The notes beneath the pieces were generated by a model. The model was not told the DNA's origin. It saw nothing but the letters and a program-made list of their open reading frames with translations, and made no database searches. A stretch of 64,000 bases of DNA from an uncultured Gammaproteobacteria bacterium (GTDB lineage Bacteria; Pseudomonadota; Gammaproteobacteria; CAWCPV01), in the NCBI GenBank assembly GCA_963797555.1, contig CAWCPV010000004.1, positions 352,001 through 416,000 of the forward strand. The letters are read 5' to 3'. This document shows positions 11,837 through 36,601 of the stretch, one piece after another; position 1 is the stretch's first letter, and each line of letters begins with the position of its first letter. A program made the position numbers and the translations under genes.

Positions 11837-12313
11837 ATGCTTCGTCGACGATGTGCTTCTCTCGCCGTTGTGCTGGTACTACAGCTTCAACAGGCATGGG
11901 CCGACACCTCCGCCGAGCCGGTAGGCGTTATCAAGGTGGCGACGGGCGCGGTGTCCATCGAGCGCGAGGGCAAGACACTGCCCGCCACGGTCGGGACGCG
12001 GGTCCGGCAGTCGGACCGCATCGTCACGGGCAAGGACGGATCGGTCGGCATCGCCTTCCACGACGACAGTCTGCTTTCGTCCGGCCCCAATACCGTGCTC
12101 GCGATCGATCGCTTCGCCTTCGACAGTACCACCAACGAAGGCAACTTCGATGCTTCGCTCAAGCGCGGCACTCTGTCGGTGGTCTCCGGCAAGATCGCCA
12201 AGCAGTCGCCCGGTGCGATGAAAGTGCGCATGCCAGCGGCGGTGCTGGCAGTGCGTGGGACGGAGTTCGCGCTCAAGGCCGTTCCCGCCTGCGGCGGAGT
12301 GGGAAATGAATAG
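11837..12313 (+). CDS. FecR-domain exported protein
   Basis: AAGGAG RBS; signal peptide; 'DRIVTGKDGSVGIAFHDDS', 'AVLAVRGTEF'. Confidence 0.8.
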   Translation: MLRRRCASLAVVLVLQLQQAWADTSAEPVGVIKVATGAVSIEREGKTLPATVGTRVRQSDRIVTGKDGSVGIAFHDDSLLSSGPNTVLAIDRFAFDSTTNEGNFDASLKRGTLSVVSGKIAKQSPGAMKVRMPAAVLAVRGTEFALKAVPACGGVGNE

Positions 12314-12893
12314 GCCGCTCGCTCTGCTGTTCTGTGCGCTGCTCTGCGCGGGTTGTGCCCCACGCGACATGGTCGTGCTCCTTCCGAGCAAAGACGGGCA
12401 TGCCAGCCAACTGGTCGTCACCCAGGACGGACGGGACACCGTGCTCGACACCCCCTATGCGTCGGTCCGTACCGACGCGCTGGGAGAGGTGGCCAAGACG
12501 AAGTCCAGCCCGCGCCAGGTACAGCGGGTGTTCGGCGCGTCGTTAGCGGCTCAGCCCATGCGCCCAGTCTCTTTCCTGCTCTATTTCGTGTCCGGTACGG
12601 ACGAGCTGACGCCGGAGTCACAGCGTGAGGTGGAGCGCATTTTCGCCGAGATCGCGCGTCGCCCCGCGCCCGAGATCACGGTCATCGGCCATACGGATCG
12701 GGTCGGCTCGGTGCGCGATAACGATCTCCTGTCCCGGCACCGAGCCGAGAAGGTGCGCAACGACCTGATCACGCGCGGTTTTCCGCCCGAGGGAATCTAT
12801 GCGGCCGGGCGCGGCGAGCGGGAGCCCTTGGTGCCTACGGCCGACGAAGTGAAGGAGCCGCGCAACCGGCGGGTGGAAATCAGCGTGCGCTGA
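12306..12893 (+). CDS. OmpA-family lipoprotein
   Basis: Lipobox LCAGC; 'VIGHTDRVG', 'NDLLSRHRA', 'RNRRVEI'. Confidence 0.9.
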   Translation: MNRPLALLFCALLCAGCAPRDMVVLLPSKDGHASQLVVTQDGRDTVLDTPYASVRTDALGEVAKTKSSPRQVQRVFGASLAAQPMRPVSFLLYFVSGTDELTPESQREVERIFAEIARRPAPEITVIGHTDRVGSVRDNDLLSRHRAEKVRNDLITRGFPPEGIYAAGRGEREPLVPTADEVKEPRNRRVEISVR

Positions 12894-15003: not shown

Positions 15004-15964
15004 TCAGAGCGCGACCTCTAGACCGTCGTAGGCGGCGATGACTTCCACCCGGTGGTCGCCGCGAGTGATCTCCTCGAAGCGGCGCGTTTCGGCGAGAACC
15101 CTCGCGAGCTGCTCGTCATCGGAGGCCGGCTCGTGGTGGAACAGACACAGAGTCTTGGCGTGCGCGAGCTGGCAAAGCTCCACGCCCACCACGTTGCTGG
15201 AATGTCCCCAGTCCTCCTTCACCGAGATGGCGTCTGCCAACGAGTACATGGCGTCGAAGATCACCAGATCGGCGTCGCGAAAGAAGTCGGCGAAAGCACG
15301 CGTCTCCTCCACGTCGTCCAGCTTGTGCTCGGAGTCCGTCGAGTAGACGAGGGTCTTGCCGCCCATCTCGACGCGGTAGCCGTAGGAGTCCATGGTATGA
15401 AGCTGCAGCTTGGGAGTTACGCGCAACCCGGCGATGTCGTGGGTCTTCCCCGGATCGAGATGGACGAATTCGATGGTGGCGCCGAGAGTGTCGAATTCGA
15501 CCGGAAAGCAGGGCGCCGACTGTTGGCGTCGGAATCCTTCCTCCAGGCAGAAATGGCACCCGTAGATACGGATCAGGTTGCCTGGAATGTAAGCGGGAAC
15601 GAAGAAGGGAAAGCCCATGATATGGTCCCAGTGGACGTGGGACATCAGCACGTGAAACACGTTCGGCTTGCCGAATCCGTGCTTGGCCAGCACCGAATTG
15701 CCGAAGGGGCGCACCCCACTGCCCAGGTCGCACAAGACGTACTCGCTGCCACCTGTCTCCAGCTCCACGCAGGAGGAATTGCCTCCGAAAGAATGACCCA
15801 CACTGAAGTCGAGATCGTGGTCCACGAAGGCCCGTGCCTTTTCCGGAGTATCGAGATTCCGACCTGCGGCCGCCACCAAGGCGGTCACGAGCTTGTCTTT
15901 CAGACCGGCTGCGGTGAGCGCGACCGGGAGGGGATCCGCGCGTGCCCCAGAACCTGACGATCAC
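15004..15964 (-). CDS. MBL-fold metallohydrolase (frameshift near 15930)
   Basis: 'VRFWGTRGS', 'GGNSSCVE', 'SHVHWDHIMG', 'WGHSS', 'FHHEP'. Confidence 0.85.
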
Positions 15965-15974
15965 GGGTTTCTCC

Positions 15975-16331
15975 TCACCGCGGCGTTGCTGCAAGGTGCA
16001 GGGTCGCCTCCTCGGCGGACGGGAAAACCTCGAACACCCGGTCGAATCGGCTGATCTCGAAGATCTCCTGGACCACCGGCTGTAATCCGGCGACCACTAT
16101 CCTCAGGCCTTGGGCTTTCATTTGCTTGGCCGCGAGCATGAGCACGCGCAGCCCGACGCTGCTCATGTAGTCCACTCCCGCAAGGTCGAGGACCAACGGG
16201 CAGCCATCCTTCTTGCAGTCGTCAAGGCTGGGAGCGAGGCCATTTTTCAGCACCTCCGCGTTGGGGTGGTCAATCCGCCCGCTGACCGAAACCACGAGGA
16301 TCCCGTCCGCGCGCCTGCTCGTCATCTCCAT
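15975..16331 (-). CDS. STAS-domain anti-sigma factor antagonist
   Basis: 'LDLAGVDYMSSVGLRVL'. Confidence 0.9.
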   Translation of the reverse strand: MEMTSRRADGILVVSVSGRIDHPNAEVLKNGLAPSLDDCKKDGCPLVLDLAGVDYMSSVGLRVLMLAAKQMKAQGLRIVVAGLQPVVQEIFEISRFDRVFEVFPSAEEATLHLAATPR

Positions 16332-16548
16332 CTGGCAACGACCTCCCGACTCGACCGGCTCAGACTAGCTAAAGTTTTGCGCCGCCACAACAGCGCGGAC
16401 ACCCGGCCCGCGCGGCCGCTGCTCAGCCGCGGGCTGCGGGCGCCGCCGAGGATTCTACACTCCGGCGCGTGCACCGGGGGCGGGCCGCGCGCCGCTCGCG
16501 GGCGGCGGAGGCCCCGATGCGGCGGCGTGTGCGACGGACCTGAGACGC

Positions 16549-19980: not shown

Positions 19981-20221
19981 ATGGCTCCCCTGGGGAGAAC
20001 CGATCTCTCCCGTTTGCGGGAGGGAACCGGTCATGGGGCCACGTTTTCATGTTCCGGGGCGGCGAAAGTCGCCATGACCGGTTAGGTTCGGTTGGCGTGA
20101 CCGACATCGCTGAAGCAAGTCTACGATAACGCCGGTCAAACTCGCCGAAATTTTGAGATGTGCGGGGGCATCCAGGGGCGTTGAACAGCCCTGCCCGTAA
20201 ACGCCGCTTGGGGGGAGGACC

Positions 20222-23059
20222 ATGACCACGCTCTTCATCAGCCACAGCAGCAAGGACAAAGGGTGGGCCGAGGTGCTGCGCGAGACCCTGCACGGCCAGG
20301 GCTACCAGTCGCTGTTCCTGGACTCCCACCCGGACGACGGCATCCCTGCCGGGGCCAAATGGGAGCAGACCCTCTGGCAGCGACTGCGGCAATCCCGCGG
20401 CGTCGTGGTACTGTGCACCAAGGACTGGCTCGCCTCGCCCTGGTGCGTCGCCGAGGCGATGATGGCGCGGGAAGCGGGGCAAGCCGGTCTTTCTCCTCGC
20501 CACTGCGGAGGTCGCGGACGGGCGTCAGGTCAAGGCGGCGGGGGAGGGAGGAGAAACGCCGCAGATCCCGGATTTCCTCAAGGACACCCAGTTCATCAGC
20601 TTGGCCGGCGTGTCCGAGGAGGAGGCCCTGCAGCGCCTCTGGCGCGGGCTGGAAGAAGAGGGCCTGAAGGACGATTTCCCGCTGCCGGAGCGGCCCTATC
20701 CGGGGCTGGAGCCCTTCCAGGAGCGAGATGCCGCCGTCTTCTTCGGCCGGGACCAGGACATCGCGCGAGTGCGAGGCGTCCTCAACCGATGCCGGCGCCG
20801 CAACGCGAAGGGCTTCATCCTGGTCCTGGGCGCCTCCGGATGCGGCAAGTCCTCCCTGGTGCGGGCGGGCGTGCTGCCGCGGCTCAGGCCCGTCGCCAGC
20901 GCGGGCGGCTCATCGCGTGAGTGGGTGATCGCGACCCCTTTCATCGGCAGCACGGGCCTCGACGGGCTCACCCGATCGCTGGCAACGGCTTTCGCGGACC
21001 GCAAGCCGCCAGAAGACCTCGAGTCCAAGATCCGAGCGATCGAGGCGGCGACGGACTCTGATGGCGGCACGCAAGAGGCCGCGCGGTCATTGCGGAGTCT
21101 CGCCAACAGCTTGCTCATCGCTTACGGCTGCACTGAAGGACACGTGCTGCTGGTGCTGGACCAGCTCGAAGAGGTGTTCGGAAGCAAGCCCGGCTCGGGG
21201 GCACGCATCATGCTGCGGCTGCTGCTGGGGGTCACCGCCGAGGACGGCAGCCCCGTGGTGGTCCTCGCCACCATGCGCTCGGATTTCCTCAACGCCTTTC
21301 AGCTCTTTCCCGGTGCCGCCGAGCGTTACGAGGAGGTCACCCTCGACCCCATGCCCAGGGCCCGCTTCGCCGAGCTGATCGAGGGGCCGGCGGAGCGCTT
21401 CGGCCTGCGGATCGAGCCCGGGCTGACCGAGCGCCTGGTGGAGGACACGCGCTACGACGACGCCCTGCCCCTGCTCGCCTTCACCCTGGAGCGGTTGTAC
21501 AAAAAGGGCGGGGAGGACGGGGTGTTGACGCTCCAGGAGTATCAGGACCTCTTCCCGCCCGTCGCCGTGCGCGGTGAGGACGGGCGCACGACCGAGCACC
21601 GAGGCGTGTCCGCCGCCATCAAGCACGCGGCCGACGAGATCCTCTCCCAGACCGGTTATGCCAGGCTTCTCGTCGAAGACCGACCCGCGCCTGCGCGACC
21701 TGCGCCGCGCGTTCTACAGTCTCGCCCGGGTGGGGGAGGCGGGCCAGTTCACGCGTCGCACCGCCCTGCGGTCACGGATGCCGTCGTTCGTGCGCGGAGG
21801 TCCTCGAGCGCTTCGTGGACCAGCGCCTGCTGGTGTCCGACGTGGGGAAGGATGGCGAGCGCACCCTGAGCGTCGCCCACGAGGCCCTGTTCCGCGTCTG
21901 GGACACCCTGCACGGCTGGCTGCTGCAAGACCGCAAGGCACTCGCGCTGCGCCACCAGATCGAGCAGGCCGCCGCCGAATGGCATGCCGCGCACCGGGCC
22001 GAGAGCCGCCGCTGGCCGGAGGAGCGCATCCTGGACGCGGTGGGCGAGATCGGCCGCAGCGGCGTGTCCCTCGATGACGTGGCCCAACCCGAGATCGTGC
22101 GCGCCTTCCTCGGCCCGACGCACCCGGAAGTCCTGTCGGAGCTGCCGTCCCTCGGCGCGGCCGAGGATCAGGCAGCCGGCAGCGGCTGCTACGGCGACGC
22201 CTGGCGTCTGCCCCTTTCCCACGAAGCGCGGGCCAGCGTCGGTGTGCGCCTGGCCCTGCTCGGCGACCGCCGCGGCGGCGTGGGGCTGCGCGACGATGGC
22301 ATGCCGGACACAGCCTGGTGCCGGGTCGAGGGCGGCGAGGTGATCATCGAGATCCGCGCGAACCCCGACGACCCGCGATCGGAGGTCGCGAGCACGCTCA
22401 CGCGGACGGTGCCCCGTTTCTGGATCGCACGCTATCCGGTCACCGTCGCCCAGTTCCAGGCGTTCCTTCGGGACTGTCACCGCGATGGCGAGTGGCACCT
22501 GCCGTCCGGCCTTCCCTTCGACCTCCCCGCCGACTACCCGCCGCCCAAGCACCGGGCAGGCTACGGTAACCATCCCGCTGATTCCGTCAACTGGTGGGAT
22601 GCGGTCGTCTGGTGTCGCTGGCTGAGTGCACGGCTCGGGCACGAGATCCGGCTGCCGACGGAATTCGAGTGGCAGCTTGCCGCGACAAGAGGCGACCCCG
22701 CCAGGACCTATCCCTGGGGCCCCGACTGGGATCCGCAGCAGGAGCCCTGGAGGGCCAACACTGTCGAGAGCGGCCTCAACAGATCCACGGCGGTCGGGCT
22801 CTACCCCTCGGGCGTGTCGCCGGCTGGCGTGCTGGATATGGCAGGGACCCTCTGGGAATGGTGCCTGAACAGTTTCGAAGACCCCGAGAACACGGGCCTT
22901 CCCGCAGACCAGCAGGACCGTCGTGTGCTGCGCGGCGGGTCCTGGTACGACGATCAGGCCCTCGCGCGCTCCGGCATCCGCCTCAGGCTCAGCCCGAGCA
23001 ACCGCGGCGGCAGCGTGGGGTTTCGGGTGTTGTGTTCGTCCCCCATCTGTGATCACTGA
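20222..23059 (+). CDS. DGR target 1: TIR - STAND (nSTAND1-like) ATPase - FGE/CLec domain (three apparent frameshifts near 20473, 21678, 21793)
   Basis: TIR 'LFISHSSKD...SPWCVAE'; 'PYPGLEPF', Walker A GASGCGKS, Walker B 'LVLDQLEE'; FGE 'RLPTEFEWQLAA', 'DMAGTLWEW', 'RVLRGGSW...GFRV'. Confidence 0.9.
22922..23048 (+). repeat. DGR variable repeat VR1
   Basis: 127-bp gapless match to TR; 18 of 19 mismatches at TR adenines. Confidence 0.95.
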
Positions 23060-24247
23060 TCTCTGGCTGCCGCGCGAGCGGCACACACGGCGCGCAGCGG
23101 CGTCTCCGCGCGCTGAACGCGGCTTGGGTACCGCTGTGAGGACGCGGTGGACACGTGGTCAGGATTCCCGGGCCGCCTTTGCGCGGCGATGCTTGGCAGT
23201 ATGCACAGCGACCCAAGCACGTGTTGGCGCAGGCCCCAGCTATCGGCGTGGCCCATGTGGGCGATCCAGCCTTGGATACTCGCGTCGAGCCTCGGCGAAG
23301 CTGATCGCGCCGGCGTGATAGGCCGCCAGCCGTGAGCGCAGCCCCCGCCGAGCGTTGCGCACCTTGCGGCCCTTGACCAGCCGGTGGGTCGGGTGGACCA
23401 CGAAGCCGAGCCAGGGAATGCCGGCCTGGACCGGCAGAACCTGAGCGCGCGTTTCGTGGATAACGAGCCGCAGCCGGGCGAGCCTTTCGATGATCGCCGC
23501 CTTCCAGGCCCACAGCTCGCGCTTGCGGTCGCCGAAGAGGGCGAAGTCGTCGACGTAGCGCAGATAGGCTGGGCAGCGTAGGTCGCGCTTCACGAACTCG
23601 TCGAAGGGGTGCAGGTAGCAATTGGACCAGAACTGCGATGTCAGATTGCCTATCGGCAGGCCCCTCGGCCGGCACACGGCCAGCAGGTCATCCCCTGGGA
23701 AGCGCACGTAGCGGTACTCGTCGTCCAGCACGCCGCGGCCGCTGTCGACGATGGCCTCGACCAGCGCCATGATGTCCGGCTCCGGCATCTGGCGGCTCAG
23801 GGTATCGAGCAGGACCGCGTGATCGACAGACGCGAAGTGCTGCACGATGTCGGCGCGCAGCACGTAGCGGTGAAGGCGAGCGAATTCCTGTAGCCGGTCG
23901 ATGGCCCGGTGGGTGCCCTTGCCGGCCCGGTTGGCGTAGCTGTCCGGCATGAAGAGGCGCTCGAAGCGGGGCTCCATCACGGTGCACAGGGCGTGGTGCA
24001 CGACTCGATCGCGGAACTGGGCCGCGCTGATCTTGCGCCGTTTCGGGTCCTTGATATGGAAGTGGACGTAAGCGCCCGGGCGGTACGTGCCCGCCAGCAA
24101 CTGCGCGCGTAGCTCCGCCAGATGCTCCTCCGCTCGGTACTCGAAGCGGGCGACGCTCTGCGTGCCACGCTTGCCGCGCGCCGCCCTGCGCCAGGCGAGC
24201 ACCAGGTTCTCCCAGGAGCACAGATGCTCGAAGGCGGGGCTCGTCAT
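23053..24247 (-). CDS. DGR reverse transcriptase (apparent +1 frameshift near 23290)
   Basis: 'FRDRVVHHAL', 'GKGTHRA', DGR signature 'GLPIGNLTSQ', catalytic 'YLRYVDD'; corrected C-terminus '[24 protein letters not shown]'. Confidence 0.95.
23068..23105 (+). promoter_or_regulatory. Post-VR1 hairpins (DGR target recognition)
   Basis: TGCCGC-GCGA-GCGGCA, then an imperfect ACACGGCGC-GCA-GCGGCGTCT; homologous to the post-VR2 hairpins. Confidence 0.7.
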
Positions 24248-24298
24248 CGAAGCGGGCCGCGCCACGCCTGGCGCGGCAACCCGAAACGGAGCATGAGC

Positions 24299-24643
24299 AT
24301 GGCCGAGGACATGGTGATCTTCTCGCGGACCTTCGACCTGCTGGAGTGGCTGCTGCCCAAAGCGGAGCGCTTCCCGCGGGTCTACCGATCCACCCTCACC
24401 CAGCGATTGATGGATGCGGCCCTGGACCTGCAGGAGACGCTGGCTGCCGCGGAATCGCGCGAGGGCCGATCGCGGGTATCCGCCCTGCGCAATGCCGATG
24501 CCGCCCTCGGGCGGCTGCGCATCTACCTGCGCCTCGCCCACCGCTGGCGCTGGCTGAGCGACGGCCAGTACGAGCACGTGAGCGCCATGACGGCTGAGAT
24601 CGGCCGGCTGCTAGGGGGCTGGGTCCGCTCGGAGCGCGGCTGA
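24299..24643 (+). CDS. avd: DGR accessory variability determinant Avd (four-helix bundle)
   Basis: 114 aa, basic; 'FPRVYR', 'LRIYLRLA', 'EIGRLLGGW'; GGAG RBS. Confidence 0.9.
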   Translation: MAEDMVIFSRTFDLLEWLLPKAERFPRVYRSTLTQRLMDAALDLQETLAAAESREGRSRVSALRNADAALGRLRIYLRLAHRWRWLSDGQYEHVSAMTAEIGRLLGGWVRSERG

Positions 24644-24678
24644 GGGCGGCCGAGAGGCCGAAGCCTGCGGCCGGGGGC

Positions 24679-24720
24679 GGGGCGCCGGGGGAGCGGACTC
24701 CGGCCGGCGCCCCTGTTTTG
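24679..24720 (+). terminator. Possible intrinsic terminator after avd (or structure of the minus-strand TR spacer RNA)
   Basis: GGGGCGCCGG...CCGGCGCCCC followed by TGTTTTG. Confidence 0.4.
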
Positions 24721-24904
24721 TATGCGCCCGACGGCCCGGCGACGCTAGGCCGTGCGGACGGGACCGACCGGCGCCATCTTTCCTACCTCGCCTCGGCCCG
24801 CAAACCGTCGTCGGCGGGCAATTCCGGAAGCGGGTCCGATCCGCAGCATGGACCTGACCCACTCGCTCGGCGCCCGAAAGCGCCTCGCCCTGGAAGGAAC
24901 CGAA

Positions 24905-25034
24905 AGATGTGGGACGAACACAACACCCGAAACCCCACGTTGTTGTTGCGGTTGTTCGGGTTGTTCCTGTTGCGGTTGCCGGAGCGCGCATTGTCCTGAT
25001 TGTCGTTCCAGGACCCGCCGCGCAGCACACGGGC
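24905..25034 (-). ncRNA. DGR template repeat (TR)
   Basis: AAC-rich copy of both VRs (reads [42 protein letters not shown]); 12 AAY codons. Confidence 0.95.
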
Positions 25035-25181
25035 GTCGTCACCGGGCGGCCCCACCGGCCGTCAGACCGGCGTTGCCGATTATGCCGGAGATGGCGGACG
25101 CTAGCCAGACCACCGATGCATCGAACCCGGCCTGCACCACGTGGCAAACCGCGAGATGAGGCGAGTGGAAAATCCGCGTAA

Positions 25182-25220
25182 AGACGGCGCTTCGCGCCGT
25201 CTATGCCGCTCCCGCGGCAT
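25182..25220 (-). promoter_or_regulatory. Post-VR2 tandem hairpins
   Basis: Minus strand ATGCCGC-GGGA-GCGGCAT and AGACGGCGC-GAA-GCGCCGTCT, both perfect. Confidence 0.8.
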
Positions 25221-25227
25221 CCAGTGA

Positions 25228-27960
25228 TCAGTGATCACAGATGGGGGACGAACACAACACCCGAAACCCCACGCCGTTGCCGCGGCCGCCCGGGCTGCCC
25301 CCGAAGCGGTAGCCGGAGCGCGCATAGCCCCGATCGACGACCCAGGACCCGCCGCGCAGCACACGGGCATCGAAATCATCGGCGCGGGACTCGATCACCT
25401 CGGTTCTGTCGTGCTTGTTCCAGCACCATTCCCAGACCGTTCCCGCCATGTCGAGTGCACCTGCCGGGGAGCCGCCAGCGGGGTACATGCCGACCGCGGT
25501 AGCGGCCCCGAGCCGGCTCTCGAAGGTGTTCGCCCGGTGCGGCTCGCCTTTGGGATCCCACTCGGGTCCCCAGGGGAAAACATTATCGGGGTCGCCGCCC
25601 GTGGCCGCCTGCTGCCATTCCCACTCGTCCGGCAGGCGTACGTCGAAGCCGCGGCGCCGCGAAAGCCAGCGGCAGAAAGCGAGGGCGTCGAACCAGCTCA
25701 CGTAGACCGCAGGGTGGTTGCCGTAGCGGCCGAGGTCGTAGCCGTCGCCTTCGGGATCGCGATAAAGGTCTCCTGCCCACCAGCGGGGATCGCGCCAGCC
25801 GTCATCCTTCTCCAGGAAGGCCCGATACTGCGCGACCGTGACGGGGTAGCGGGCGATGTGAAAGCCCTCGACCTGCTTGCCGCGCGCTTTGGTGCCGCCG
25901 AGCAAACGCCGCTGGACCTGAATGGCGACCTCGCCGCCGGGCACTGGGCACCAGTCCATCTGCGGGGTCCCCTGCGCATCGACCCCCACCCCCAGCCGCG
26001 GGTCCCCGAGGACGGCGAGGCGCTCGCCGATGAGGGTGCGGCGGCGGTGGGTCGTGTCGGGCCTGTCGATCTCGGCCAGCATTGCATCGGCATCGACGGG
26101 ACCGAGGAACTCCTCTTCTTCCGGGCTCAGCACGAAGCGCGGGCCGGGCTGCCGCAGCATCGACGCCAGTTCGCGCACGCGCTCGTGCGACCAGAGGTAG
26201 CTCGGTTGCTTCTGGTGCTCGAGCCAGTTGCGCGCGTCCGCCTGAAGCTGCTGGCCCAGCGCCGCCCGCTGCTTATGCTGCTCGACATAGTTCCAGAGCG
26301 TCGGCCAATAGGGCTGGGCCTTGCCCTCGGGGTCCAGGCCCTTGCTGCGGATCAGCGTCTCGTGGATCAGGCTGACCCACCGCCCGTCGCGCTGCGCGTC
26401 CTCGTCCCCCTCGGTCCGCTCGGTCACGGTGATGAGCCGCAGCGGCCCCTGTGTCTGCCCCACGTCCCGGGCGCGCTCGCCGGCGAGACGACTGACCAGG
26501 GCGCGACCGTCATCGCCGCCGCCCGCCGCTGCCATGGCCTCGGGGAACGGGAGACGCCGGCGGGTGTGACGGCGTCCTTCGGGGTCCACGTTCACCAGCC
26601 GGAACAGAAGCTCCAGAGCCCGGTTGCGCTCGCTGCCCAACGCTTGGAGCAGATCGTCGGCGCTGCGGCTGAGGATGCCGGCGAGGCCGCCCTGATCGGT
26701 GAAGAGCTTGCCGCTCAGGCGGGGGCTGTTCTTGCGCTGCTCCCACAGCCAGTGGAGCGCGTTCTCGACCAGCGGCAGCGCCCCCGGCTCGTCGTACGCC
26801 TGTTGCACCATGGCCTCCTGCACCTCGCTCACATCGAGACCGGCCAGCCGCGCCGGGCCGCCGATGACCTCGCGCAGAGCATCCGCAGTAATGGGCGGCA
26901 GCGTCCAGGGCTTACCCAGCCGGTTGCGCAGGCCGACCAGCCGCCGCAGGTCCTCGAAGCGGTCGAGAAAGTCCGCGCGCACGGTGGAGATGATGAACAG
27001 CGGACAATCGTTGTCTCCCAACGCGCCCGCGAGCAGGCGATCGAAGTGCTTGCGCTCGTCCGGGTCGGAGAAGGTGAACAGCTCCTCGAACTGATCGATG
27101 GCGAGCAGAAAGGCGCTGTCGTCCCGCTTGCGGCTGCGTAGCCAGTCGGTGAGGGCGCGGTCACTGGCCTCCAGGCGTTGGCGGACATCGGCCATCTCCT
27201 CCTCGAAGGTCAGCGCGAGCTTCTCGGCCAGCATGGCCACCGGGTGCTCCCCCGGCATCATCGGCCCGATCCGCCGCCAGTGCTCGATGCGGGTGCGGGG
27301 CCACAGCCAACCCTGCTCCACCAGCGGCAGCAGGCCGGCGCTCATCAGCGAGGACTTGCCGGAGCCGCTGTTGCCGTTGATCTCCAGCCAGCGCACGCTC
27401 GGGCTGCCGGGACGGGTGTCGAAGCAGGCGAGCGCGTCCAGGGTCTCCTTCTGGCGGCCGAAGAAGAGCTGGGCCTGATCCATGTTGTAGGCGGCGAGTC
27501 CGACGAAGGGGCGGCCCTCGAACTTGGCAGCGCTTGCCACCAGGGTGCGGTCGCGGATCTGCGCGAGCAGTCGCTCGGGCAGGGGGGCCGCCCCATCCCA
27601 GAGTGTCGCCTGGAACAGCCGCAGGAAGGCCGGGAGCGTGTCGGGTCCCATGTCGCCCAGCAGGATGGGAAAGATCGGCAGGCGCTCGGCGTCGTCGTGG
27701 GGACCGAAATAGCGGTTGAGCGCCGCCTGGGTCTCGGCCCCGATCCAGCGCCGCACCCCGTCCCGGCCCACCAGCACGACGAAGCTTCCGCAGGCATCCA
27801 CCGCCTCCTGCAGGCGGTCGAGCCACAGCTCGCCCGCGCGGATGCGATCGTCGTCCTTGAACACCGACAGCCCGCACCGATCGAGCTGCCCGCGGAGGTT
27901 GATGGCCGCTTCGAGGTCGTTACGGCTGTGGCTCAGGAAGACGTGGTAGGGATCGGTCAT
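25228..27960 (-). CDS. DGR target 2: TIR - STAND ATPase - FGE/CLec domain (910 aa, intact)
   Basis: 'VFLSHSRND...RWIGAE'; 'PFVGLAAY', GNSGSGKS, 'LAIDQFEELF'; 'RLPDEWEWQQAA', 'DMAGTVWEW', VR2 at the C-terminus. Confidence 0.93.
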   Translation of the reverse strand: MTDPYHVFLSHSRNDLEAAINLRGQLDRCGLSVFKDDDRIRAGELWLDRLQEAVDACGSFVVLVGRDGVRRWIGAETQAALNRYFGPHDDAERLPIFPILLGDMGPDTLPAFLRLFQATLWDGAAPLPERLLAQIRDRTLVASAAKFEGRPFVGLAAYNMDQAQLFFGRQKETLDALACFDTRPGSPSVRWLEINGNSGSGKSSLMSAGLLPLVEQGWLWPRTRIEHWRRIGPMMPGEHPVAMLAEKLALTFEEEMADVRQRLEASDRALTDWLRSRKRDDSAFLLAIDQFEELFTFSDPDERKHFDRLLAGALGDNDCPLFIISTVRADFLDRFEDLRRLVGLRNRLGKPWTLPPITADALREVIGGPARLAGLDVSEVQEAMVQQAYDEPGALPLVENALHWLWEQRKNSPRLSGKLFTDQGGLAGILSRSADDLLQALGSERNRALELLFRLVNVDPEGRRHTRRRLPFPEAMAAAGGGDDGRALVSRLAGERARDVGQTQGPLRLITVTERTEGDEDAQRDGRWVSLIHETLIRSKGLDPEGKAQPYWPTLWNYVEQHKQRAALGQQLQADARNWLEHQKQPSYLWSHERVRELASMLRQPGPRFVLSPEEEEFLGPVDADAMLAEIDRPDTTHRRRTLIGERLAVLGDPRLGVGVDAQGTPQMDWCPVPGGEVAIQVQRRLLGGTKARGKQVEGFHIARYPVTVAQYRAFLEKDDGWRDPRWWAGDLYRDPEGDGYDLGRYGNHPAVYVSWFDALAFCRWLSRRRGFDVRLPDEWEWQQAATGGDPDNVFPWGPEWDPKGEPHRANTFESRLGAATAVGMYPAGGSPAGALDMAGTVWEWCWNKHDRTEVIESRADDFDARVLRGGSWVVDRGYARSGYRFGGSPGGRGNGVGFRVLCSSPICDH
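25239..25368 (-). repeat. DGR variable repeat VR2
   Basis: Gapless match to TR; all 23 mismatches at TR adenines. Confidence 0.95.
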
Positions 27961-28024
27961 CAGCAGCGGCCCGGGACCATCGAAATCCGGGCGTTCGGCC
28001 TCGCGAGCTGATAACGCGCTCGCA

Positions 28025-29050
28025 TCATGCCGGAAGCGACACGAGACCGAGCCTTGCTTGCAGGCCCTTGCGGACCAACTGCACGGCGCGGCGCATGTCC
28101 CTTGTCGCGAGCAGCTCGCGGGTCTCCGGCTCATCCAGGCCGGTGCTGAGTGCCGCGGAAAGATTGGGCCTGGCTGTTTCGATGTGCTGGAACAGGGCGT
28201 CCAGCGCATCCCCAGTGGCGCGGACGCCGAGTGGCAACTGGAACTGCGCGCTCAGGTCCAGCAGCTTCTCGAGGCCCGCGGTCCTGGCCTTGTGCCAATC
28301 CACGGTGAATTCCTCGGGACGGGTTGCGGCCGGGCCGAGCAGCGCCCTGGACAGCACTTCCGCGGCGCCGCCGAACCCGCCCAGGATGTAGAGCGGGACT
28401 TGGCGTTCGAGTGCCATCAGCGCTTCCTCGAAGATGCCGGGCAGAAAGCCGCTGAACCCTTGCACCTTGCCGCCGAGTATCACCCGCGCCACGATCGGCG
28501 GCACCGGCTCCGGGCTCGGGAGGTCGGGAATGTCGATGGCCATGCCGTCCATCGCCAGGCGGCGCATGCTGCTCAGAGCGACGGCGGCGTTGAACAGCGC
28601 GCGATCCGAGCCTCCTCTCGCTTCATGGTCCGGAACCGTATCCGCCTGCGAAATGCCCGCGTGCTGCTGGGTGATGCGAACGACCCGGCAGCAGTTGATC
28701 CACTCGGCCTCGATCCGGGGCGTGATGTCGAGGTAGTGCGGCCATGCGGAATGGTTGTAGAGCCGGCCGATCACGAGATTGGTATCCGGACCGCCCAGGC
28801 TGTTGTCCTCCTGCTCCGCGCTGATCAGGCGCAGGAGGTCGAAGGTGAAGTTGTCCTCGGTTTCTTGCCAGTGGCCGCCGTAGGCGAGGCTCACCCCCTG
28901 TCTCAGCAGGGGGCGTGCGAGGCGCAGCAGCAGCTCGCGCAGGTGCTCCAGGCCCAGGCCGCGGGCCAGGAGGTTTTCCCTCGCATAGGAGACGGAGAGG
29001 CCGACGACGCGAGGCGTGCTGGCTCGCGAGCGATACTTGCCGCCGCTCAT
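28025..29050 (-). CDS. SLOG-superfamily (cluster 2-like) protein
   Basis: 'VGLSVS', 'LAYGGHW', 'LSSMRR', 'ARVILGGK', 'PGIFEEA', 'PLYILGGFGGAA'. Confidence 0.8.
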   Translation of the reverse strand: MSGGKYRSRASTPRVVGLSVSYARENLLARGLGLEHLRELLLRLARPLLRQGVSLAYGGHWQETEDNFTFDLLRLISAEQEDNSLGGPDTNLVIGRLYNHSAWPHYLDITPRIEAEWINCCRVVRITQQHAGISQADTVPDHEARGGSDRALFNAAVALSSMRRLAMDGMAIDIPDLPSPEPVPPIVARVILGGKVQGFSGFLPGIFEEALMALERQVPLYILGGFGGAAEVLSRALLGPAATRPEEFTVDWHKARTAGLEKLLDLSAQFQLPLGVRATGDALDALFQHIETARPNLSAALSTGLDEPETRELLATRDMRRAVQLVRKGLQARLGLVSLPA

Positions 29051-30354
29051 AATGCCACCTGGTCGAAGCTGTGGAAGGCGAGCCGCGGGAAGAATTCGTC
29101 GAGAATATCGAGCTCGAGCCCGGAAAGACCGCGGCCAGGATAGAGCACGCGCAGCTCCTCGCTTGCCGCCCGCACCCTGGGGATATGCAGCAGCGTGGTG
29201 GGGTCGGGCAGCCAGTTGAGAACGATGCAGTCCGCCTCGTCCGGCATCGTTCTTCCGAGAGCCGAGTGGAACGCGGCGAGCAGGACGTCGCGCAGCGCGA
29301 TGGTCACGATCTGCTCCGATTGGTGCAGTTGCGCCGCGGGGTCGACCGGTTCGTCCGACCAGCGGATGAGCGTGGCGTTGCCGATCTCGGGGATGCCCGG
29401 TGTCTGGGATCCCCCTTCGAGCGCTTCGACCACGACCATGGGATTCAAGCGCCACCGCTCGGCGAGGCCGGGCCTCGGGATGTCCTGCAGCGGGCGCCGA
29501 AACAGCGACAGCTCGCGCCGGCACCATGGGCGGGTCGCATAGCGGGCGCTGCGCACGGCGATCATGGCCGCGGTCTGCATGCCCTCGACATTCGACTGCA
29601 GCACCCGGCTGAACGCCGATCCGAAGGGAATGTCGTTTTCATCATAAAACGCGGCGAGCTGGGTCTGACTGTAGATATAGTCGCGAATCCGCCTGGCGGG
29701 CTCCGTGCCATCCGCCTTGGCATGGCTGAGAAAAATCGTGATCTTCGGCTGAGCCGCGTCCACCGCCGCCCCGCCATCGACCGCGTTCCCGGCCGGCGCG
29801 TCCCCCGGCCTCAGCATGATGCGGCACAGGGCCTCGGTGAGCTGCTTCAAGAGCGAGCGGACCACGGTCTCGGTCGCCTCCGGCGGTACTGGAGCACCCG
29901 CGACGGGCAACGGCAGACCTGCGGGGCGGAGGAAATTCAGCTCGCGCAGGGGCGCGGGCACGTTGAATGCCGTCGAATCCAGGGCCACCGGCAGGAACAC
30001 GCGGCGCACGCCAGTGCCGCGCTCCAATGCGAGTCGCACCAGCCAGTGCCGCCAGGCGGCATCCGCGATCATCTGATCGTCGATCAGCAGCAGCACGGTC
30101 TGCATGTTGGCGGAGCCGGAGGCGGGCGCCTGTGGCGGGGGTGGGGAGTTGGGGCCTGGAAACCGCGACTCTCCCGGCAAGGGCGGGGGCAACCCGCCCT
30201 TCGGGGCTTCCGGAGCCGGAAGGCTGCGGTAGAACACCTGCGGGCCGAGGCCATTGCCAGGCCTCAGCCACCCATGAATGCGCGGGGCCAGCAGTTCTCC
30301 GAGCGTACTGGCGGGGTGCCACAACACGAAGATCTCAGGAATCGGATAGTCCAC
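29047..30354 (-). CDS. TIR-domain protein
   Basis: 'IFLSHAKADG', 'AFYDENDIPFG', 'YATRPWCRRE'; 4-bp overlap with the SLOG gene. Confidence 0.8.
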   Translation of the reverse strand: MDYPIPEIFVLWHPASTLGELLAPRIHGWLRPGNGLGPQVFYRSLPAPEAPKGGLPPPLPGESRFPGPNSPPPPQAPASGSANMQTVLLLIDDQMIADAAWRHWLVRLALERGTGVRRVFLPVALDSTAFNVPAPLRELNFLRPAGLPLPVAGAPVPPEATETVVRSLLKQLTEALCRIMLRPGDAPAGNAVDGGAAVDAAQPKITIFLSHAKADGTEPARRIRDYIYSQTQLAAFYDENDIPFGSAFSRVLQSNVEGMQTAAMIAVRSARYATRPWCRRELSLFRRPLQDIPRPGLAERWRLNPMVVVEALEGGSQTPGIPEIGNATLIRWSDEPVDPAAQLHQSEQIVTIALRDVLLAAFHSALGRTMPDEADCIVLNWLPDPTTLLHIPRVRAASEELRVLYPGRGLSGLELDILDEFFPRLAFHSFDQVAL

Positions 30355-30552
30355 GCGTCCCCCGGGCAGGCTGCAGGCACCTGCGCTGTTGGCAGGATGG
30401 TAGGGGCTATGGCGCGGTCGGACAAGCCGGTGGCGGAGTCAACGAGGCGAGCAGGAGGCCAGTTGCGCTGTGAGGACTGGGGGCGGGTGCGATCTGGAAG
30501 CCGTTGGCTCCAACGCGGGCCCTGCGAACGGGCGGCAGTCCGAGGCACCGCG

Positions 30553-32213
30553 TCAGGTGCCCCTGGATCTCTCCCGCGCACTGCGAAACCAAGAGAGCAG
30601 CCCACGGCCGGCATGCCGCCGGCAAGCTTCAAGCTCGGCCTCGACGGTCTTCTTGTCGTCCGCCCACTGGGCCATCCCGGGCGCCCGCTCCAGCAGGGCG
30701 GCGAAGATACGGTAGGACGCTTCGTAAAGGGGCAAAGCGGCCTCGTTCCTGCCATTGCCGGCCTCCATGCGCGCAAGCCGCAGATAGGCTAACGCCAGGT
30801 CGCGCTGCCAGCCGGCGTTGCTCGGGTCCTGCTCGGCCAGGCGCCGGCTGATGGCGAGGGTTTGCTCGAAGGCCGAGCGCGCTGCCTCGAGCTGCCCTTG
30901 GGCCTGCAGCACGCCGCCCACCCGGCTGTGCGCCACCGCGAGGCCGCGCTGCCAGCCGGCGTTGCTCGGGTCCTGCTCGGCCAGGCGCCGGCTGATGGCG
31001 AGGGTTTGCTCGAAGGCCGAGCGCGCTGCCTCGAGCTGCCCTTGGGCCTGCAGCACGTCGCCCACCCGGCTGTGCGCCACCGCGAGGTCGCGCTGCCAGC
31101 CGGCGTTGCTCGGGTCCTGCTCGGCCAGGCGCCGGCTGATGGCGAGGGCTTGCTCGAAGGCCGAGCGCGCTGCCTCGAATCTGCCCTTGGGCCTGCAGCA
31201 CGCCGCCCACCCGGCTGTGCGCCACCGCGAGGCCGCGCTGCCAGCCGGCGTTGCTCGGGTCCTGCTCGGCCAGGCGCCGGCTGATGGCGAGGGTTTGCTC
31301 GAAGGCCGAGCGCGCTGCCTCGAGCTGCCCTTGGGCCTGCAGCACATCGCCCACCTGGCTGTGCGCCACCGCGAGGTCGCGCTGCCAGCCGGCGTTGCTC
31401 GGGTCCTGCTCGGCCAGGCGCCGGCTGATGGCGAGGGACTGCTCGAAGGCCGAGCGCGCTGCCTCGAGCTGCCCCTGGGCACGGAAAACGTCGCCGAGCA
31501 GACAACGCCCCTCCCCCTGCGCCGGCTCGTCGGTGCTGACACGTGCGAGATTCGAGAATCTCGCGCGCGGCGTCGGCGAGCTGTGCCGTTTCTCCCCGCG
31601 CGTCGCGCGCCCAAGCGATGGTGATCAGGCTCCAGAGGCGTGCCCGCCCATCGACGAGGCGGGTTTCGTCGAGCTCTCTGAGAACCGTCGCCAGGGCGTA
31701 CCGGTCCTCCGGGCGTGCACTGCTACTCCAGTGCCGGTTCAGGCGTTCCAGCTCACTCGCGCCGCGTTCGGGGTCGGCGCATAGCTGGTGGTAAATCCAT
31801 TCGATGCGGCCCGTTGCCCCGAGGTCGTCCGGGAAGCATGCCGCCGCGAGGGCGGACAGGGAACGGAGGTGGGAGAGGTTCTCCAGAGCTAGCGTCCGCC
31901 GCCATCCCAGGCGGGTGGATTCGTGGACGTTGCGCCGGTTCAGCCCGCCTCTGCCGTACCGCTCGACGAAGGGAAAGGACGCCAGCGCCTCGAACCGTCT
32001 CTCTGCCTCCTCCGCTGGAATACCCAGCATCCTCGCCAGCAGGCTGGCATCGAACCAATGGAGCACGGCGGCTGCATCGAGCGCGGCTTTGAGCGCCTCG
32101 CGCTCCCCCTCTGGCCGGGTCGACAGGACGAATTCGGCGGCCACGGCCGCCTGGGCACGAGTATCGCCCTGGGACGCCTCGAGGCGCTGGAGGAGCTGTT
32201 CGACAATAGCCAT
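30553..32213 (-). CDS. Helical/wHTH plus TPR-repeat protein (two apparent frameshifts near 31551 and 31180)
   Basis: N-terminal 'HWFDASLLARML...FPFVER...VHESTR'; 48-aa TPR-like repeats 'GQLEAARSAFEQxLAISRRLAEQDPSNAGWQRxLAVAHS'. Confidence 0.8.
30803..31480. repeat. 144-bp tandem repeat, about 4.7 near-identical copies
   Basis: Unit starts at 30803, 30947, 31091, 31236, 31380. Confidence 0.95.
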
Positions 32214-32221
32214 TGGTCAGG

Positions 32222-33394
32222 TCAGCTCTGGGCAATGGCCTTGCAGGTGGCATCCACAATTGCTGGGATGCCCTTGGTCACCATCAATACGGTGGGCAGA
32301 TGCGCCCCCTTCTCGCGGAAACCGGGATAACGTTGTTCGACCCAGGGCTCCCAGTCCGCGGGATCGGTGATGGGCGTCAGCGGGATATGGCGTGAAGAGT
32401 CGCGCCAGACGGCGTTGGCGAAGTTCGGCACCTTTTTACCGGCGACGATCACGGCCACACCCAGCGCCGTCTCGACCTCAGCCAGGAGCTGCAGGCTGAG
32501 CCAGTCAGCAACCACCTTGTTGCCTGCCGCATATTCGTAGCTGTCGAAGATCAGAAGGACGGCCCGGCGCAGCGCCCGGAGGTCCTTGCGCAGCAGGTGC
32601 GTCTTGCTGGCGCCTTCGCGGCAGAACTTCGGCAGGTGCTCTCCCAGGTCGAGGTCGAATTGGCCGAGGACGTCCTCGAGCTTCAGCCCGCCGCCCTTGA
32701 AGTCCACCCGCACCACCGGGATGCCCAGCTTTTTCGCGTAGGCCGTGGCATGGCGGACGAGCACGGACTTCCCGAGGCCGCTACCGCCTTCGAAGAGCAG
32801 GATGCGCTCGCGCAAGGTCCCGGCGAGGAGTTCCACGATCATCGGCCACTCGCCGGTGCGATCCGCCACATCCGGCGCAAATGGCACAGGCTCGGGCCAG
32901 CGGACGGTCGGCGGCTCGATGCCTTGCAGGCCGAGGCGCTCGGCGGCCCAGCGAATCAACTGATTCAACTGATCGTCGCTGGCGAAGGGCCGAAACTGGT
33001 GCCATGCGCGGAGTCTTGTCCGAACTTTGTCGGCAAGGATGTCATGAAGGAACGCGAGGCGGATGCGAGCGTTGTGGCCCTTCTCGTCCCAGAGGGCCTG
33101 CCGAAACAGATCGGCTTCCGTAGCCGCACCCAGGCCTGCGGCCGGCGGCCCGGTCTTATCGTAAGCGGCGAACCACCCTTCCGATGCGACGATGACCACG
33201 CACGCGGATTCATTGGCGCAGTCCTCGCACCATTTTGGTCAGCCCTCGTCTGGGCCGCCGGGGTGCTCGTCGAGATAGAACTGATCCAGTGTGACCGGGA
33301 GTTGCGCCTGACGCAGGAGCTGGCCCAGGCGGCGCACCGACCTGGCGTGCTCGGGGCTCTCGTGGCGGTAGCTGATGAAGACCTGGTTCACCAT
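32222..33394 (-). pseudogene. SEFIR/TIR - P-loop ATPase with in-frame TGA at codon 52
   Basis: 'MVNQVFISYRHESPEH...GGPDEG*PKWC' in frame with the downstream ORF; Walker A GGSGLGKS, Walker B 'LLIFDSYE'. Confidence 0.75.
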
Positions 33395-33410
33395 GCGACT
33401 GTCCGGGGAC

Positions 33411-33899
33411 TCAAACGGATGAGGCGCCAGTGTCCTCTAGCATCGTCAGGTCCTCCACCTGCGCCATGGCGGCGAGGGCACGGGTGTAGCCGCGCAGCCG
33501 GGGCTGGAGGGCGGCCAGCTCGGCGCGGAATTCGCGGCAGCGCTCCGGGTCCTTGAACGCATCGGCCAGCGAGAGCCGGTGCCACCTGGCCGTGAAGGGT
33601 CGGACGATCTGGTTGAGCACCGGGATGGCCAGCTTGGCGAACTCGCCGCAGCCGGAGCCGTGGCGCCGCAGGATCTCGCGGGTCAGGGGGAAGATCGCAT
33701 GCACGCTGTCGAGCGCGGTCTTTTCGTCGCCGTCTTCCGGGGCAAGATACTGTGTGGTAATGCGGGTGAGCAGCTCGACGTACAGCTCCCACGCCGCGGC
33801 GCGGTCCGGATCGTGCGGCGAGAATTCGCCCTCGAGGAAGCCCAGGTTGATCTTGAGGCTGGAAAGGCCCCATTTCTCCAGGAAGTCGCGGCGCTTCAC
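33411..33899 (-). CDS. Hypothetical protein (162 aa), first gene of the minus-strand run
   Basis: AGGAG RBS; host-like codon use; 'AAWELYVELLTRITTQ', 'LNQIVRPFTARWH'. Confidence 0.75.
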   Translation of the reverse strand: MKRRDFLEKWGLSSLKINLGFLEGEFSPHDPDRAAAWELYVELLTRITTQYLAPEDGDEKTALDSVHAIFPLTREILRRHGSGCGEFAKLAIPVLNQIVRPFTARWHRLSLADAFKDPERCREFRAELAALQPRLRGYTRALAAMAQVEDLTMLEDTGASSV

Positions 33900-36289: not shown

Positions 36290-36601
36290 CAGCGCCTGGA
36301 GATTCACCACACGCCCAAGGCTGGACGTGGCCGAAATTGAGTTGAGTGTTCTTCCACTCAGCAGTGCCTCAACCGCCGTATACCCGATATTGAACACTTA
36401 CCTTGCCAGGCCAAAGCCTGGGCCGACGAACGCCGCAACGCCGCAACGCCGCAACGCCGCAACGCCGCAACGCCGCAACGCCGCAACGCCGCAACGCCGC
36501 AACGCCGCAACGCCGCTCAGGTCGGCGTCGACTGGTAGTTCACCAACGACGATGCTCTCAACAAAGTCAAGCGATTATAGCCTAAAATTGAGATGAAATA
36601 A
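36290..36601 (+). pseudogene. Degraded IS630-family transposase C-terminus
   Basis: 'LDVAEIELSVL', 'QCLNRRIPDIEHL', 'AWADER..AQVGVDW*FT...KRL*PKIE' with stops and frameshifts. Confidence 0.7.
36429..36516. repeat. (AACGCCGC)x11 perfect tandem repeat
   Basis: Read directly from the sequence. Confidence 0.97.

Follow-up and report, generated by a model that had tools for sequence, protein, structure and literature searches.

The window analysed here is a stretch of 64,000 nucleotides from an uncultured Gammaproteobacteria bacterium (GenBank assembly GCA_963797555.1, contig CAWCPV010000004.1, positions 352,001 to 416,000 of the forward strand). It carries three consecutive genes on the minus strand: a gene for a TIR-domain protein, here called TIRp; a gene for a stand-alone SLOG protein; and T2, whose product ends in an FGE/C-type lectin (CLec) domain and is a target of a diversity-generating retroelement (DGR). 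A sequence-only reading of this DNA had reported a 4-bp overlap of the TIR and SLOG genes and a 64-bp gap between the SLOG gene and T2, and both are read directly in the sequence. The TIRp stop codon (TGA, 29049-29047) lies within the ATG-A that opens the SLOG gene (29050-29047), giving the 4-nt overlap ATGA; the SLOG gene ends with TGA at 28027-28025, and T2 starts with ATG at 27960. A longer open reading frame (ORF) of 993 aa (25228-28209) was considered as the T2 gene and rejected, because its extension is the 3′ end of the SLOG gene read in another frame; the TIR domain begins only at its residue 87. A promoter and terminator scan of the minus strand between 24600 and 30800 found no consensus signal, and co-transcription is neither shown nor excluded by it. 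The predicted RNA fold of the 64-nt spacer did not exceed that of shuffled sequences (z -0.44), which says nothing either way on co-transcription. A search of sequencing runs for words of this DNA listed one DNA run, which contains 0.06 of the sampled words, and no run recorded as RNA.

The SLOG protein belongs to Pfam family PF18163 (LD_cluster2), which it matched with an E-value of 7.7e-40 and 137.6 bits against a gathering cut-off of 25.3. Among 8000 candidates scored, 346 relatives were found at E 0.001 or better; the best 120 of these 346 are 58-76% identical to it, nearly all are 332-352 aa long, and all carry PF18163. The AlphaFold2 (AF2) model, built from 14 sequences (pLDDT 88.5, pTM 0.88), has the Rossmann-like fold of the SLOG superfamily. 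Its best match is the SLOG domain of BcThsA with bound 3′ cyclic ADP-ribose (3′cADPR) (7uxs_A, Z 14.6, rmsd 3.4, 186 of 196 residues aligned), and it also matches the ADP-ribose-binding N-terminal domain (MHR1/2) of TRPM2 (9jje_A, Z 13.5, rmsd 4.1, 229 aligned) and LOG-like proteins (1rcu_A, Z 11.7; 1ydh, Z 11.1). Foldseek alone placed TRPM channels at the top (E 6.5e-5). The SLOG fold assumed in the sequence-only reading is thus borne out by the family match and by the closest solved structure. The family shows unusual conservation: many charged residues are invariant, and a GGFGGAAE motif resembles that of LOG proteins. The SLOG protein had no SIR2 match in Pfam and no ThsA match in PADLOC; indeed, no PADLOC or NCBIfam model matched it. 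Within a set of 41 genomes it was found in the window's own genome only, and each of the other 40 belongs to a family other than its own, so that synteny of the locus cannot be traced in this set. A pattern scan of viral contigs found no SLOG relative.

TIRp has a TIR_2 match in Pfam (E 3.5e-10, residues 207-287). By sequence, neither the TIRp profile nor the TIR domain of T2 matched a PDB entry at E 0.01 or better. In the AF2 model of TIRp (25 sequences, pLDDT 85.4), residues ∼203-360 are predicted to form a TIR fold, best matched by the TIR domain of SARM1 (9mw1_B, Z 14.0, rmsd 2.3, 122 aligned, model residues 205-354); further matches are SPARTA TIR-APAZ (8ifl, Z 13.8), Cat1 (9mue, Z 12.8), TIR-STING (6wt7, Z 11.9) and plant TIRs. 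The three Glu motifs that had been read from the TIR domains were all found in the translations: PWCRRE in TIRp, RWIGAE in T2 and PWCVAE in T1, the second DGR target. In TIRp this residue is E281, within RPWCRRE, and it is invariant in 25 of 25 aligned homologues. E281 pairs with the Glu of the plant-TIR motif WCxxEL, albeit in weak phmmer alignments (3jrn, E 0.049; L6, E 0.95; RPP1, E 1.0), and we take this conserved TIR Glu to be the catalytic residue. From the modelled fold and the conserved WCxxE Glu, TIRp is predicted to be an enzymatic TIR protein with NADase or cyclase activity. Its N-terminal ∼180 residues form a separate alpha/beta domain, which a language-model search placed nearest to TIR_2 clusters (0.91); this gives a lead, and only a lead, that the domain may itself be TIR-like.

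Structure prediction of TIR-SLOG complexes had been proposed as a check, and it favoured an interaction. The TIRp-SLOG complex model scored 0.82 (runs 0.82, 0.85 and 0.82), and the best of three controls scored 0.00. In the benchmark, 58 of 80 solved complexes and 2 of 110 mismatched pairs attain that score; the complex model was made with our own alignments, and therefore these benchmark counts apply only approximately. Contact agreement between runs was at least 92%, and the pLDDT of the partner was at least 87. The predicted interface joins TIRp residues 20-57 and 402-435 with SLOG residues 4-7, 25-50, 78-81 and 317-327, and takes in the most conserved stretches of both families (TIRp 20-57 and 402-435; SLOG 25-50). 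The model supports, rather than demonstrates, binding of TIRp and the SLOG protein to each other.

Related loci were collected by a pattern scan of one genome per species, a sample that is biased toward relatives sharing two peptide motifs. The scan gave 69 loci (designated L and a number), or 62 distinct loci after near-identical ones were collapsed; a count of 70 is the 69 plus the window. TIR and SLOG neighbours in the 69 loci were called by tblastn with the window's proteins. At 61 of the 69 loci (54 of the 62 distinct loci) the SLOG gene is immediately preceded by a TIR gene on its own strand, so the linkage on which the sequence-only reading depended does recur. The eight loci in which no upstream TIR was seen are L009, L012 and L026; L042 and L055, which have less than 550 nt upstream; and L059, L064 and L065, where the SLOG match covers only 45-86 residues. 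Among 31 unfused pairs, 28 have the TIR stop codon between -19 and +8 nt relative to the extrapolated start of the SLOG gene. At 14 of the 69 loci TIR and SLOG form a single uninterrupted ORF of 655-1277 aa; the fusion of TIR_2 with LD_cluster2 was confirmed by Pfam in L032, L036 and L037, and on a Gloeothece plasmid an annotated 689-aa "TIR domain-containing protein" spans the SLOG match. A second sample, based on hidden Markov models (HMMs), covered 401 genomes of the phylum. PF18163 was detected in six of them, including the window's own genome and genome G367, where the match lies inside locus L140. Four new loci came from this sample; all four have a TIR upstream, in one case fused (773 aa). 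The pair is best seen as the split, two-gene form of a conserved, horizontally spread TIR-SLOG(cluster2) unit. It is not peculiar to this locus: the module is widespread and mostly DGR-free.

The pair has a third recurrent partner. A small helical protein of an unnamed family, here called up3, is encoded farther upstream in the window; it had no Pfam, PADLOC or NCBIfam match. A database search gave 3276 relatives of up3, and the best 120 of the 3276 are 80-93% identical to it and are spread across phyla. An up3 homologue lies within 10 kb of the SLOG gene at 26 of the 69 loci and within 1.7 kb at 19 of them, typically just after the SLOG gene or just before the TIR gene, and up3 was also present at two of the four loci from the unbiased 401-genome sample. 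In the window, up3 is set apart from TIRp by a broken TIR/SEFIR-like-AAA_22-TPR gene. At about 14 loci the up3 domain forms the N-terminus of proteins of ∼830-930 aa that have a patatin GxGxxG region (PF01734, E 2e-6 to 2e-4), and CapV-like patatin genes abut the pair in L005, L044 and L066 (NF041079, E 1.6e-83 for L005). In L009 and L012, a SLOG copy for which no immediately preceding TIR was found is followed by an up3-patatin gene; at L009 a further TIR gene stands ∼1 kb upstream, and another TIR-SLOG pair lies downstream. The claim that the SLOG protein acts with no visible fused effector is accordingly incomplete: no effector is fused to it here, but a third conserved partner and the patatin lipases of relatives stand nearby, and the paired TIR may itself be an output. 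A relationship of up3 to DUF6650/ThsG of type VI Thoeris, an atlas lead (0.85), found no support. None of 27 up3 members matched PF20355 at E 5 or better, hhalign gave a probability of 0.25% against one DUF6650 protein and of 1.2% (E 0.042, 27 columns) against an 18-sequence DUF6650 alignment, and PF20355 had no match in the window's genome.

Among known systems, type III Thoeris comes closest. A preprint (bioRxiv 10.64898/2025.12.03.692087), which cites van den Berg et al. 2024 for it, depicts it as multiple TIR proteins together with an effector that contains SLOG and whose signalling has yet to be characterised. NCBIfam has models for two of its proteins, NF058525 (ThcA) and NF058526 (ThcB4). 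ThcA, which corresponds to Pfam PF18180 (LD_cluster3, SLOG cluster3), was found above the cut-off in 6 of the 401 genomes. In L140, a ThcB4 gene (380 aa, NF058526 E 9.9e-136) is followed after 3 nt by a ThcA gene (188 aa, NF058525 E 3e-73). The order of genes there is a TIR gene, a small gene with a TIR-HMM match, a ThsB_TIR gene, a 538-aa fusion, ThcB4, ThcA and a TIR gene, so that four TIR-domain ORFs flank ThcB4-ThcA. The 538-aa protein (L140 5696-7312) joins a SLOG-like N-terminus (LD_cluster2 E 9.5e-9; ThcA E 1e-4) to a CapV-like patatin (E 4.8e-65), and looks like a sensor-effector fusion within a type III Thoeris locus.

The window resembles such a locus in several respects. A protein of ∼380-435 aa with a mid-placed TIR is encoded directly upstream of a stand-alone SLOG gene, the junction being a 3-nt gap in L140 and a 4-nt overlap in the window; additional TIR genes are present (T1, T2 and the broken TIR/SEFIR-like gene); and patatin lipases, carried by relatives of the window's pair, occur in L140 linked to a SLOG-like domain. 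The differences concern the families. ThcA is an LD_cluster3 protein of 188 aa, whereas the SLOG protein of the window is an LD_cluster2 protein of 341 aa, and the extra TIR proteins of the window carry STAND and DGR-mutated CLec domains instead of short ThsB-like bodies. The SLOG protein matched no NCBIfam model, NF058525 included, at E 0.01 or better, hhalign found no relation between it and ThcA (probability 0.5%), and the window's genome had no match to NF058525 or PF18180, that is, no cluster3 gene. TIRp likewise did not match NF058526 at E 0.01 or better, and is like ThcB4 only in gene order and size. ThcA falls into a sister family, SLOG cluster3, which makes the pair a variant rather than a member of type III Thoeris, and from sequence the cluster2 pairs are a candidate sister system. 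We conclude that TIRp and the SLOG protein very probably form an interacting module of the type III Thoeris kind.

Other systems share parts of this architecture. In type I Thoeris, ThsA (SIR2-SLOG) acts with the TIR protein ThsB, and the signal is 3′cADPR. The window is like it in that the SLOG fold is nearest to the 3′cADPR-bound SLOG domain of ThsA and in that one SLOG unit stands with several TIR sensor proteins; it is unlike it in that there is no SIR2, and the enzyme joined to the SLOG protein, in trans or as a fusion, is a TIR. A search for STALD in the window's genome gave no match, and the same search gave no match in any genome. In Cat1 (CARF-TIR), TIR-STING and SPARTA TIR-APAZ, a ligand-binding domain is likewise joined to a TIR, and the fold matches of TIRp include the TIRs of all three, which are NAD-depleting outputs; here, by contrast, the binding domain is SLOG cluster2 and is usually on a separate chain. 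TIR-SLOG systems, with the same superfamily pairing, were reportedly predicted by computation by Burroughs et al. in 2015 in Nucleic Acids Research (NAR), which is also said to be the source of the Pfam LD_cluster families. Another article refers to "TIR-SLOG-based antiviral systems" (PMC9503650).

The hypervariable receptor named in the sequence-only reading is real. Template repeat (TR) and variable repeat (VR) differ on TR adenines at 23 of 23 differences between TR and VR2, in T2, and at 18 of 20 between TR and VR1, in T1. With a reverse transcriptase (RT), an Avd protein and adenine-biased TR/VR pairs, T2 and T1 are DGR targets. T2 has TIR_2 (E 9.9e-14), nSTAND1 (E 1.4e-75) and FGE-sulfatase (E 1e-42) matches in Pfam, and the same three domains were found on the three pieces of T1. 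T1 is split over three frames, and two of the 20 VR1 differences fall off TR adenines; T1 is a pseudogene, or else its sequence contains indels from sequencing. Located between TR and RT, the avd gene is on the opposite strand, so a transcript from TR to RT would be antisense to it; Avd and RT are divergent in every related locus that has both genes. On metagenome contigs, RT relatives with 57-86% identity stand beside Avd and FGE targets. At no fewer than five places in the genome RT occurs with Avd (contig C3, ∼48 kb; C6, ∼62 kb and 49.5 kb; C14, ∼9 kb and 228 kb), and nSTAND-FGE genes are numerous. An additional TR-like copy of 80.6% identity lies ∼143 kb from the window's TR (C4:520442-520570) and may be a remote target. 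Coordinates are collected in Table 1.

Table 1. Features of the TIR-SLOG locus and its surroundings, in window coordinates.
Feature	Positions	Strand	Description and basis
TIRp	29047-30354	minus	435 aa, GTG start; N-terminal alpha/beta ~1-180, TIR ~203-360, C-terminal part to 435
SLOG cluster2 protein	28025-29050	minus	341 aa; Pfam PF18163, model, fold matches
Spacer, SLOG stop to T2 start	27961-28024	minus	64 nt; direct sequence reading
T2	25228-27960	minus	910 aa, TIR-nSTAND1-FGE/CLec, DGR target; Pfam; VR2 25239-25372
up3	33411-33899	minus	162-aa helical protein, unnamed family; recurrent third partner of TIR-SLOG pairs
Template repeat (TR)	24905-25038	minus	repeat families D1, I1, I2; alignment
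VR2 in T2	25239-25372	–	repeat
VR1 in T1	22922-23048	–	repeat
bAvd	24293-24643	plus (opposite to RT and TR)	PF22296, E 5.2e-19
DGR reverse transcriptase	23240-24247	minus	335 aa; RVT_1, E 1.3e-13
T1	20222-23059	plus	TIR-nSTAND1-FGE target in three frames (20222-20920, 20601-21869, 21815-23059); Pfam per piece
Broken TIR/SEFIR-like + AAA_22 + TPR gene(s)	30553-33436	minus	between up3 and TIRp

T1 and T2 share the layout of described DGR sensors. Dore et al. 2024 report DGR-diversified STAND-CLec "antigen sensors" of multicellular bacteria, with two targets per DGR, a central nSTAND1, a C-terminal CLec/FGE domain with the VR and, in some cases, an N-terminal TIR (PMC10907252). Unlike the sensors described in such main texts, one of the targets in the window, T2, adjoins a SLOG gene. 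The word SLOG does not occur in the main text of that article; in the main text of Kaur et al. 2020 (PMC7159879) SLOG appears in general lists only, with no tie to DGR targets, and in that of Kaur 2021 (PMC8195603) it is not tied to them either. A further main text notes FGE-type STAND sensors and mentions neither DGR nor SLOG with them (PMC13581612). Our literature search, which covered main texts, turned up no link between a SLOG protein and DGR targets in any paper, and a prior listing in supplements, or in Table S1 or Figure 1C of bioRxiv 10.64898/2025.12.03.692087, is possible; the terms PF18163, SLOG cluster2, LD cluster2 and LDcluster2 had no occurrence in the literature searched. The combination had been put forward as undescribed. 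This holds for the literature searched, but a relative, type III Thoeris with its several TIRs and SLOG, has been described.

The gene between up3 and TIRp is broken in several ways. An in-frame TGA (33239-33241) interrupts its TIR/SEFIR-like N-terminus at a position where Trp would be expected from relatives, and the TPR units lie in two further reading frames. Pfam gave SEFIR (E 9e-4), TIR_2 (E 3e-3) and AAA_22 (E 1.9e-5), and the TPR part (30793-31480) consists of 4.8 copies of a 144-nt unit with 96-97% identity. It is either a decaying gene or the product of assembly indels within the repeat. The G+C content is 0.67-0.71 over window positions 20000-32000 and 0.62-0.66 in the flanks, which fits an acquired island. 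Farther on, at window positions 36429-36516, an 8-nt unit, AACGCCGC, forms a perfect tandem repeat of 11 copies.

The reading that we favour, tentatively and at a little short of an even chance, is that the locus is a TIR-SLOG(cluster2) immune-signalling unit that here has the DGR-diversified T2 and T1 as its sensors. The unit would serve NAD-derived immune signalling, with a TIR enzyme physically joined to a SLOG nucleotide-binding domain. It would usually travel with the ∼160-aa up3 domain, either free-standing or as part of a patatin lipase, and with additional sensor-bearing TIR proteins, which in the window would be T2 and T1. A ligand would bind the hypermutated CLec domain of T2; the STAND NTPase would oligomerise; the TIR domains of T2 would make an ADP-ribose-derived signal; and the SLOG protein would bind it. 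TIRp, held by the SLOG protein, would then be switched on and would deplete NAD+ or amplify the signal, and/or up3-type effectors would be triggered, leading to growth arrest or cell death. In ThsA (SIR2-SLOG), CARF-TIR and TIR-STING, the binding domain is the sensor and the NAD-consuming enzyme is the output. By analogy with these, the SLOG protein would sense, TIRp would be an output, and up3 or patatin a further output. We infer the ligand, every step of this flow and the placing of T2 upstream of the SLOG protein. A functional coupling of TIRp-SLOG to T2, with a signal that runs from T2 to the SLOG protein, is suggested by position and by analogy, and we regard it as possible rather than probable.

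This reading draws on the neighbourhoods of the related loci, where an association of the pair with TIR-CLec sensors, some of them DGR-diversified, recurs. Five other places (L005, L015/L066, L027, L030 and L057) have RT and Avd no more than 10 kb from a SLOG cluster2 gene. L057 shows the order TIR, SLOG, an 82-nt gap, a TIR-nSTAND-FGE target with broken frames, an opposite-strand Avd, RT and a second target; its RT is 74-81% and its Avd 80% identical to those of the window, its SLOG only 27%. L015/L066 is a single Ideonella contig on which two different TIR-SLOG pairs, with SLOG proteins 60% and 28% identical to that of the window, lie ∼7 kb on either side of one DGR. Single-ORF TIR-nSTAND-FGE proteins are encoded in L005, L027 and L030, and a TIR-NACHT-FGE protein in L003; in L015 and L017/18 TIR and FGE are adjacent ORFs on the same strand. 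Proteins of ∼410 aa with TIR_2 and FGE and no NTPase are found near the pair in L001, L004 and L005. In L001, the closest relative of the window, four paralogous genes (5902-8529, 11704-12927, 15416-16468) flank a TIR-SLOG-up3 operon; the three that were checked are TIR_2+FGE, and the fourth is similar. Overall, TIR-(NTPase)-FGE proteins stand beside the pair at 9 of the 62 distinct loci and at 8 of 34 in the close subfamily. A TIR HMM found extra TIR ORFs at 40 of the 70 loci including the window, and at 32 of the 62 distinct loci without it. No DGR-type RT is present in the L001 assembly (best identity 30%), and in the genomes of L001, L004 and L018 no RT exceeds 31% identity; the L003 genome carries a 65% identical one, on a contig of 2 kb. 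Therefore, TIR-FGE neighbours occur with and without a DGR.

The strongest alternative, to which we give a substantial minority of the probability, is that the genes are independent neighbours in one defence island. TIRp-SLOG-up3 would be self-sufficient: TIRp would sense infection by its own N- and C-terminal domains and make the signal, and SLOG and/or up3 would read it. T2 and T1 would be NAD+-destroying NLR-like proteins, next to the pair through island clustering and shared mobility. Four observations sit poorly with mere neighbourhood. Most TIR-x-FGE genes are immediate neighbours of the pair's operon and often divergent from it, with gaps of 26-341 nt (in L001 the gap is 186 nt and in L004 341 nt; in L005 it is 26 nt, measured from CapV, and in L018 108 nt, measured from up3). 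They are also far commoner than the density in the window's own genome predicts. That baseline is unusually high (its 5.35 Mb contain 5 DGRs, 4 TIR-x-FGE genes and, besides TIRp, 13 TIR ORFs), and against it the binomial tails are 1e-25 for extra TIRs, 4e-7 for TIR-x-FGE (9/62) and 0.006 for DGR places. The junction is also the same in L057, whose SLOG belongs to a different subfamily. Finally, neither an NTPase nor any other output domain is present in the short TIR-FGE proteins, which thus resemble signal makers of the ThsB type.

A set of further observations weighs against the sensor reading, and much of it suits an island. The TIR HMM behind the counts of extra TIR ORFs was seeded from the same loci, and the ORFs were called mechanically. 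The DGR enrichment is weak when kin are collapsed to three lineages (P 0.10 against the DGR density of the window's own genome), and 63 of the 69 loci have no RT within 10 kb. Neither FGE nor RT was found at any of the four loci of the unbiased sample. No SLOG or TIRp gene was found in 50 RT-anchored metagenome loci, only 12 of which are 8 kb or longer; in one informative case, L071 (RT 82%), the contig has only ∼1 kb upstream of the first target. The genome itself has RT with Avd at five or more places and 14 TIR ORFs, yet one TIR-SLOG pair. The survey of SLOG neighbourhoods for DGRs, suggested in the sequence-only reading, thus confirms co-occurrence at other places and at the same time shows the DGR link to be optional in both directions. 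Moreover, T2, with a TIR of its own, could act alone as an NAD-depleting NLR-like protein, the ∼180 additional N-terminal residues of TIRp could serve as a sensor, defence genes group in islands anyway, and the G+C content over 20-32 kb is higher than in the flanks, as in an acquired island. The present results do not constrain the direction of signalling.

A second alternative, which we consider improbable, is a two-step synthase, in which TIRp would cleave NAD+, the SLOG protein, as a LOG-like glycosidase or transferase, would mature the messenger, and up3, on its own or on patatin lipases, would be both its receptor and the effector. Consecutive enzymes are often fused, as TIR and SLOG are at 14 loci, and the conservation of the SLOG protein, with its invariant charged residues, its LOG-like GGFGGAAE and its matches to 1rcu and 1ydh, would suit an enzyme; so would the SLOG-up3-patatin order of L009 and L012, where that SLOG copy has no TIR directly upstream. 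Against this, the top fold match of the SLOG protein, the ThsA SLOG domain (Z 14.6), is a non-catalytic sensor, and in the sensor-TIR fusions that match TIRp (Cat1, 9mue; TIR-STING, 6wt7) the TIR is the output. It is very improbable that the pair is a threshold or safety device that binds or degrades the stray signal of leaky mutated sensors and so limits autoimmunity, for although hypermutated receptors risk self recognition, the pair sits beside such receptors, and viral SLOG domains have been proposed, in PMC9503650, to degrade cyclic ADP-ribose (cADPR)-type signals, most pairs have no DGR at all and the invariant TIR Glu points to an active NAD-cleaving partner and not to a sink.

The TIR-SLOG unit with T2 and T1 as its sensors, if taken one step further, would be a Thoeris-like pathway with an adaptive-style front end, in which many retroelement-rewritten TIR-CLec sensors would make one signal for a single TIR-SLOG hub with up3. 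We consider this extended form rather less likely than not. In bacteria it would correspond to a varied set of receptors, produced by diversification, that all feed a single innate output. The short TIR-FGE proteins would then form a new class of ThsB-like sensors, and the TIR-SLOG unit would be an analogue of ThsA with a TIR in place of SIR2. To our knowledge, the sensing domains of the TIR sensors in Thoeris-type immunity are fixed. If lectin domains hypermutated by a DGR feed such a messenger pathway, programmed receptor diversification would be joined to second-messenger immunity, which bears on how the DGR targets of multicellular and environmental bacteria yield an output. The module itself, TIR, SLOG cluster2 and up3, is compact, very conserved and absent from PADLOC 2.0 and NCBIfam, and the assignment of ThcA to SLOG cluster3 places the cluster2 pairs as a candidate sister system of type III Thoeris. 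The natural TIR-SLOG fusions, the predicted interface and the short TIR-FGE proteins, as candidate signal makers, provide material for experiments on it.

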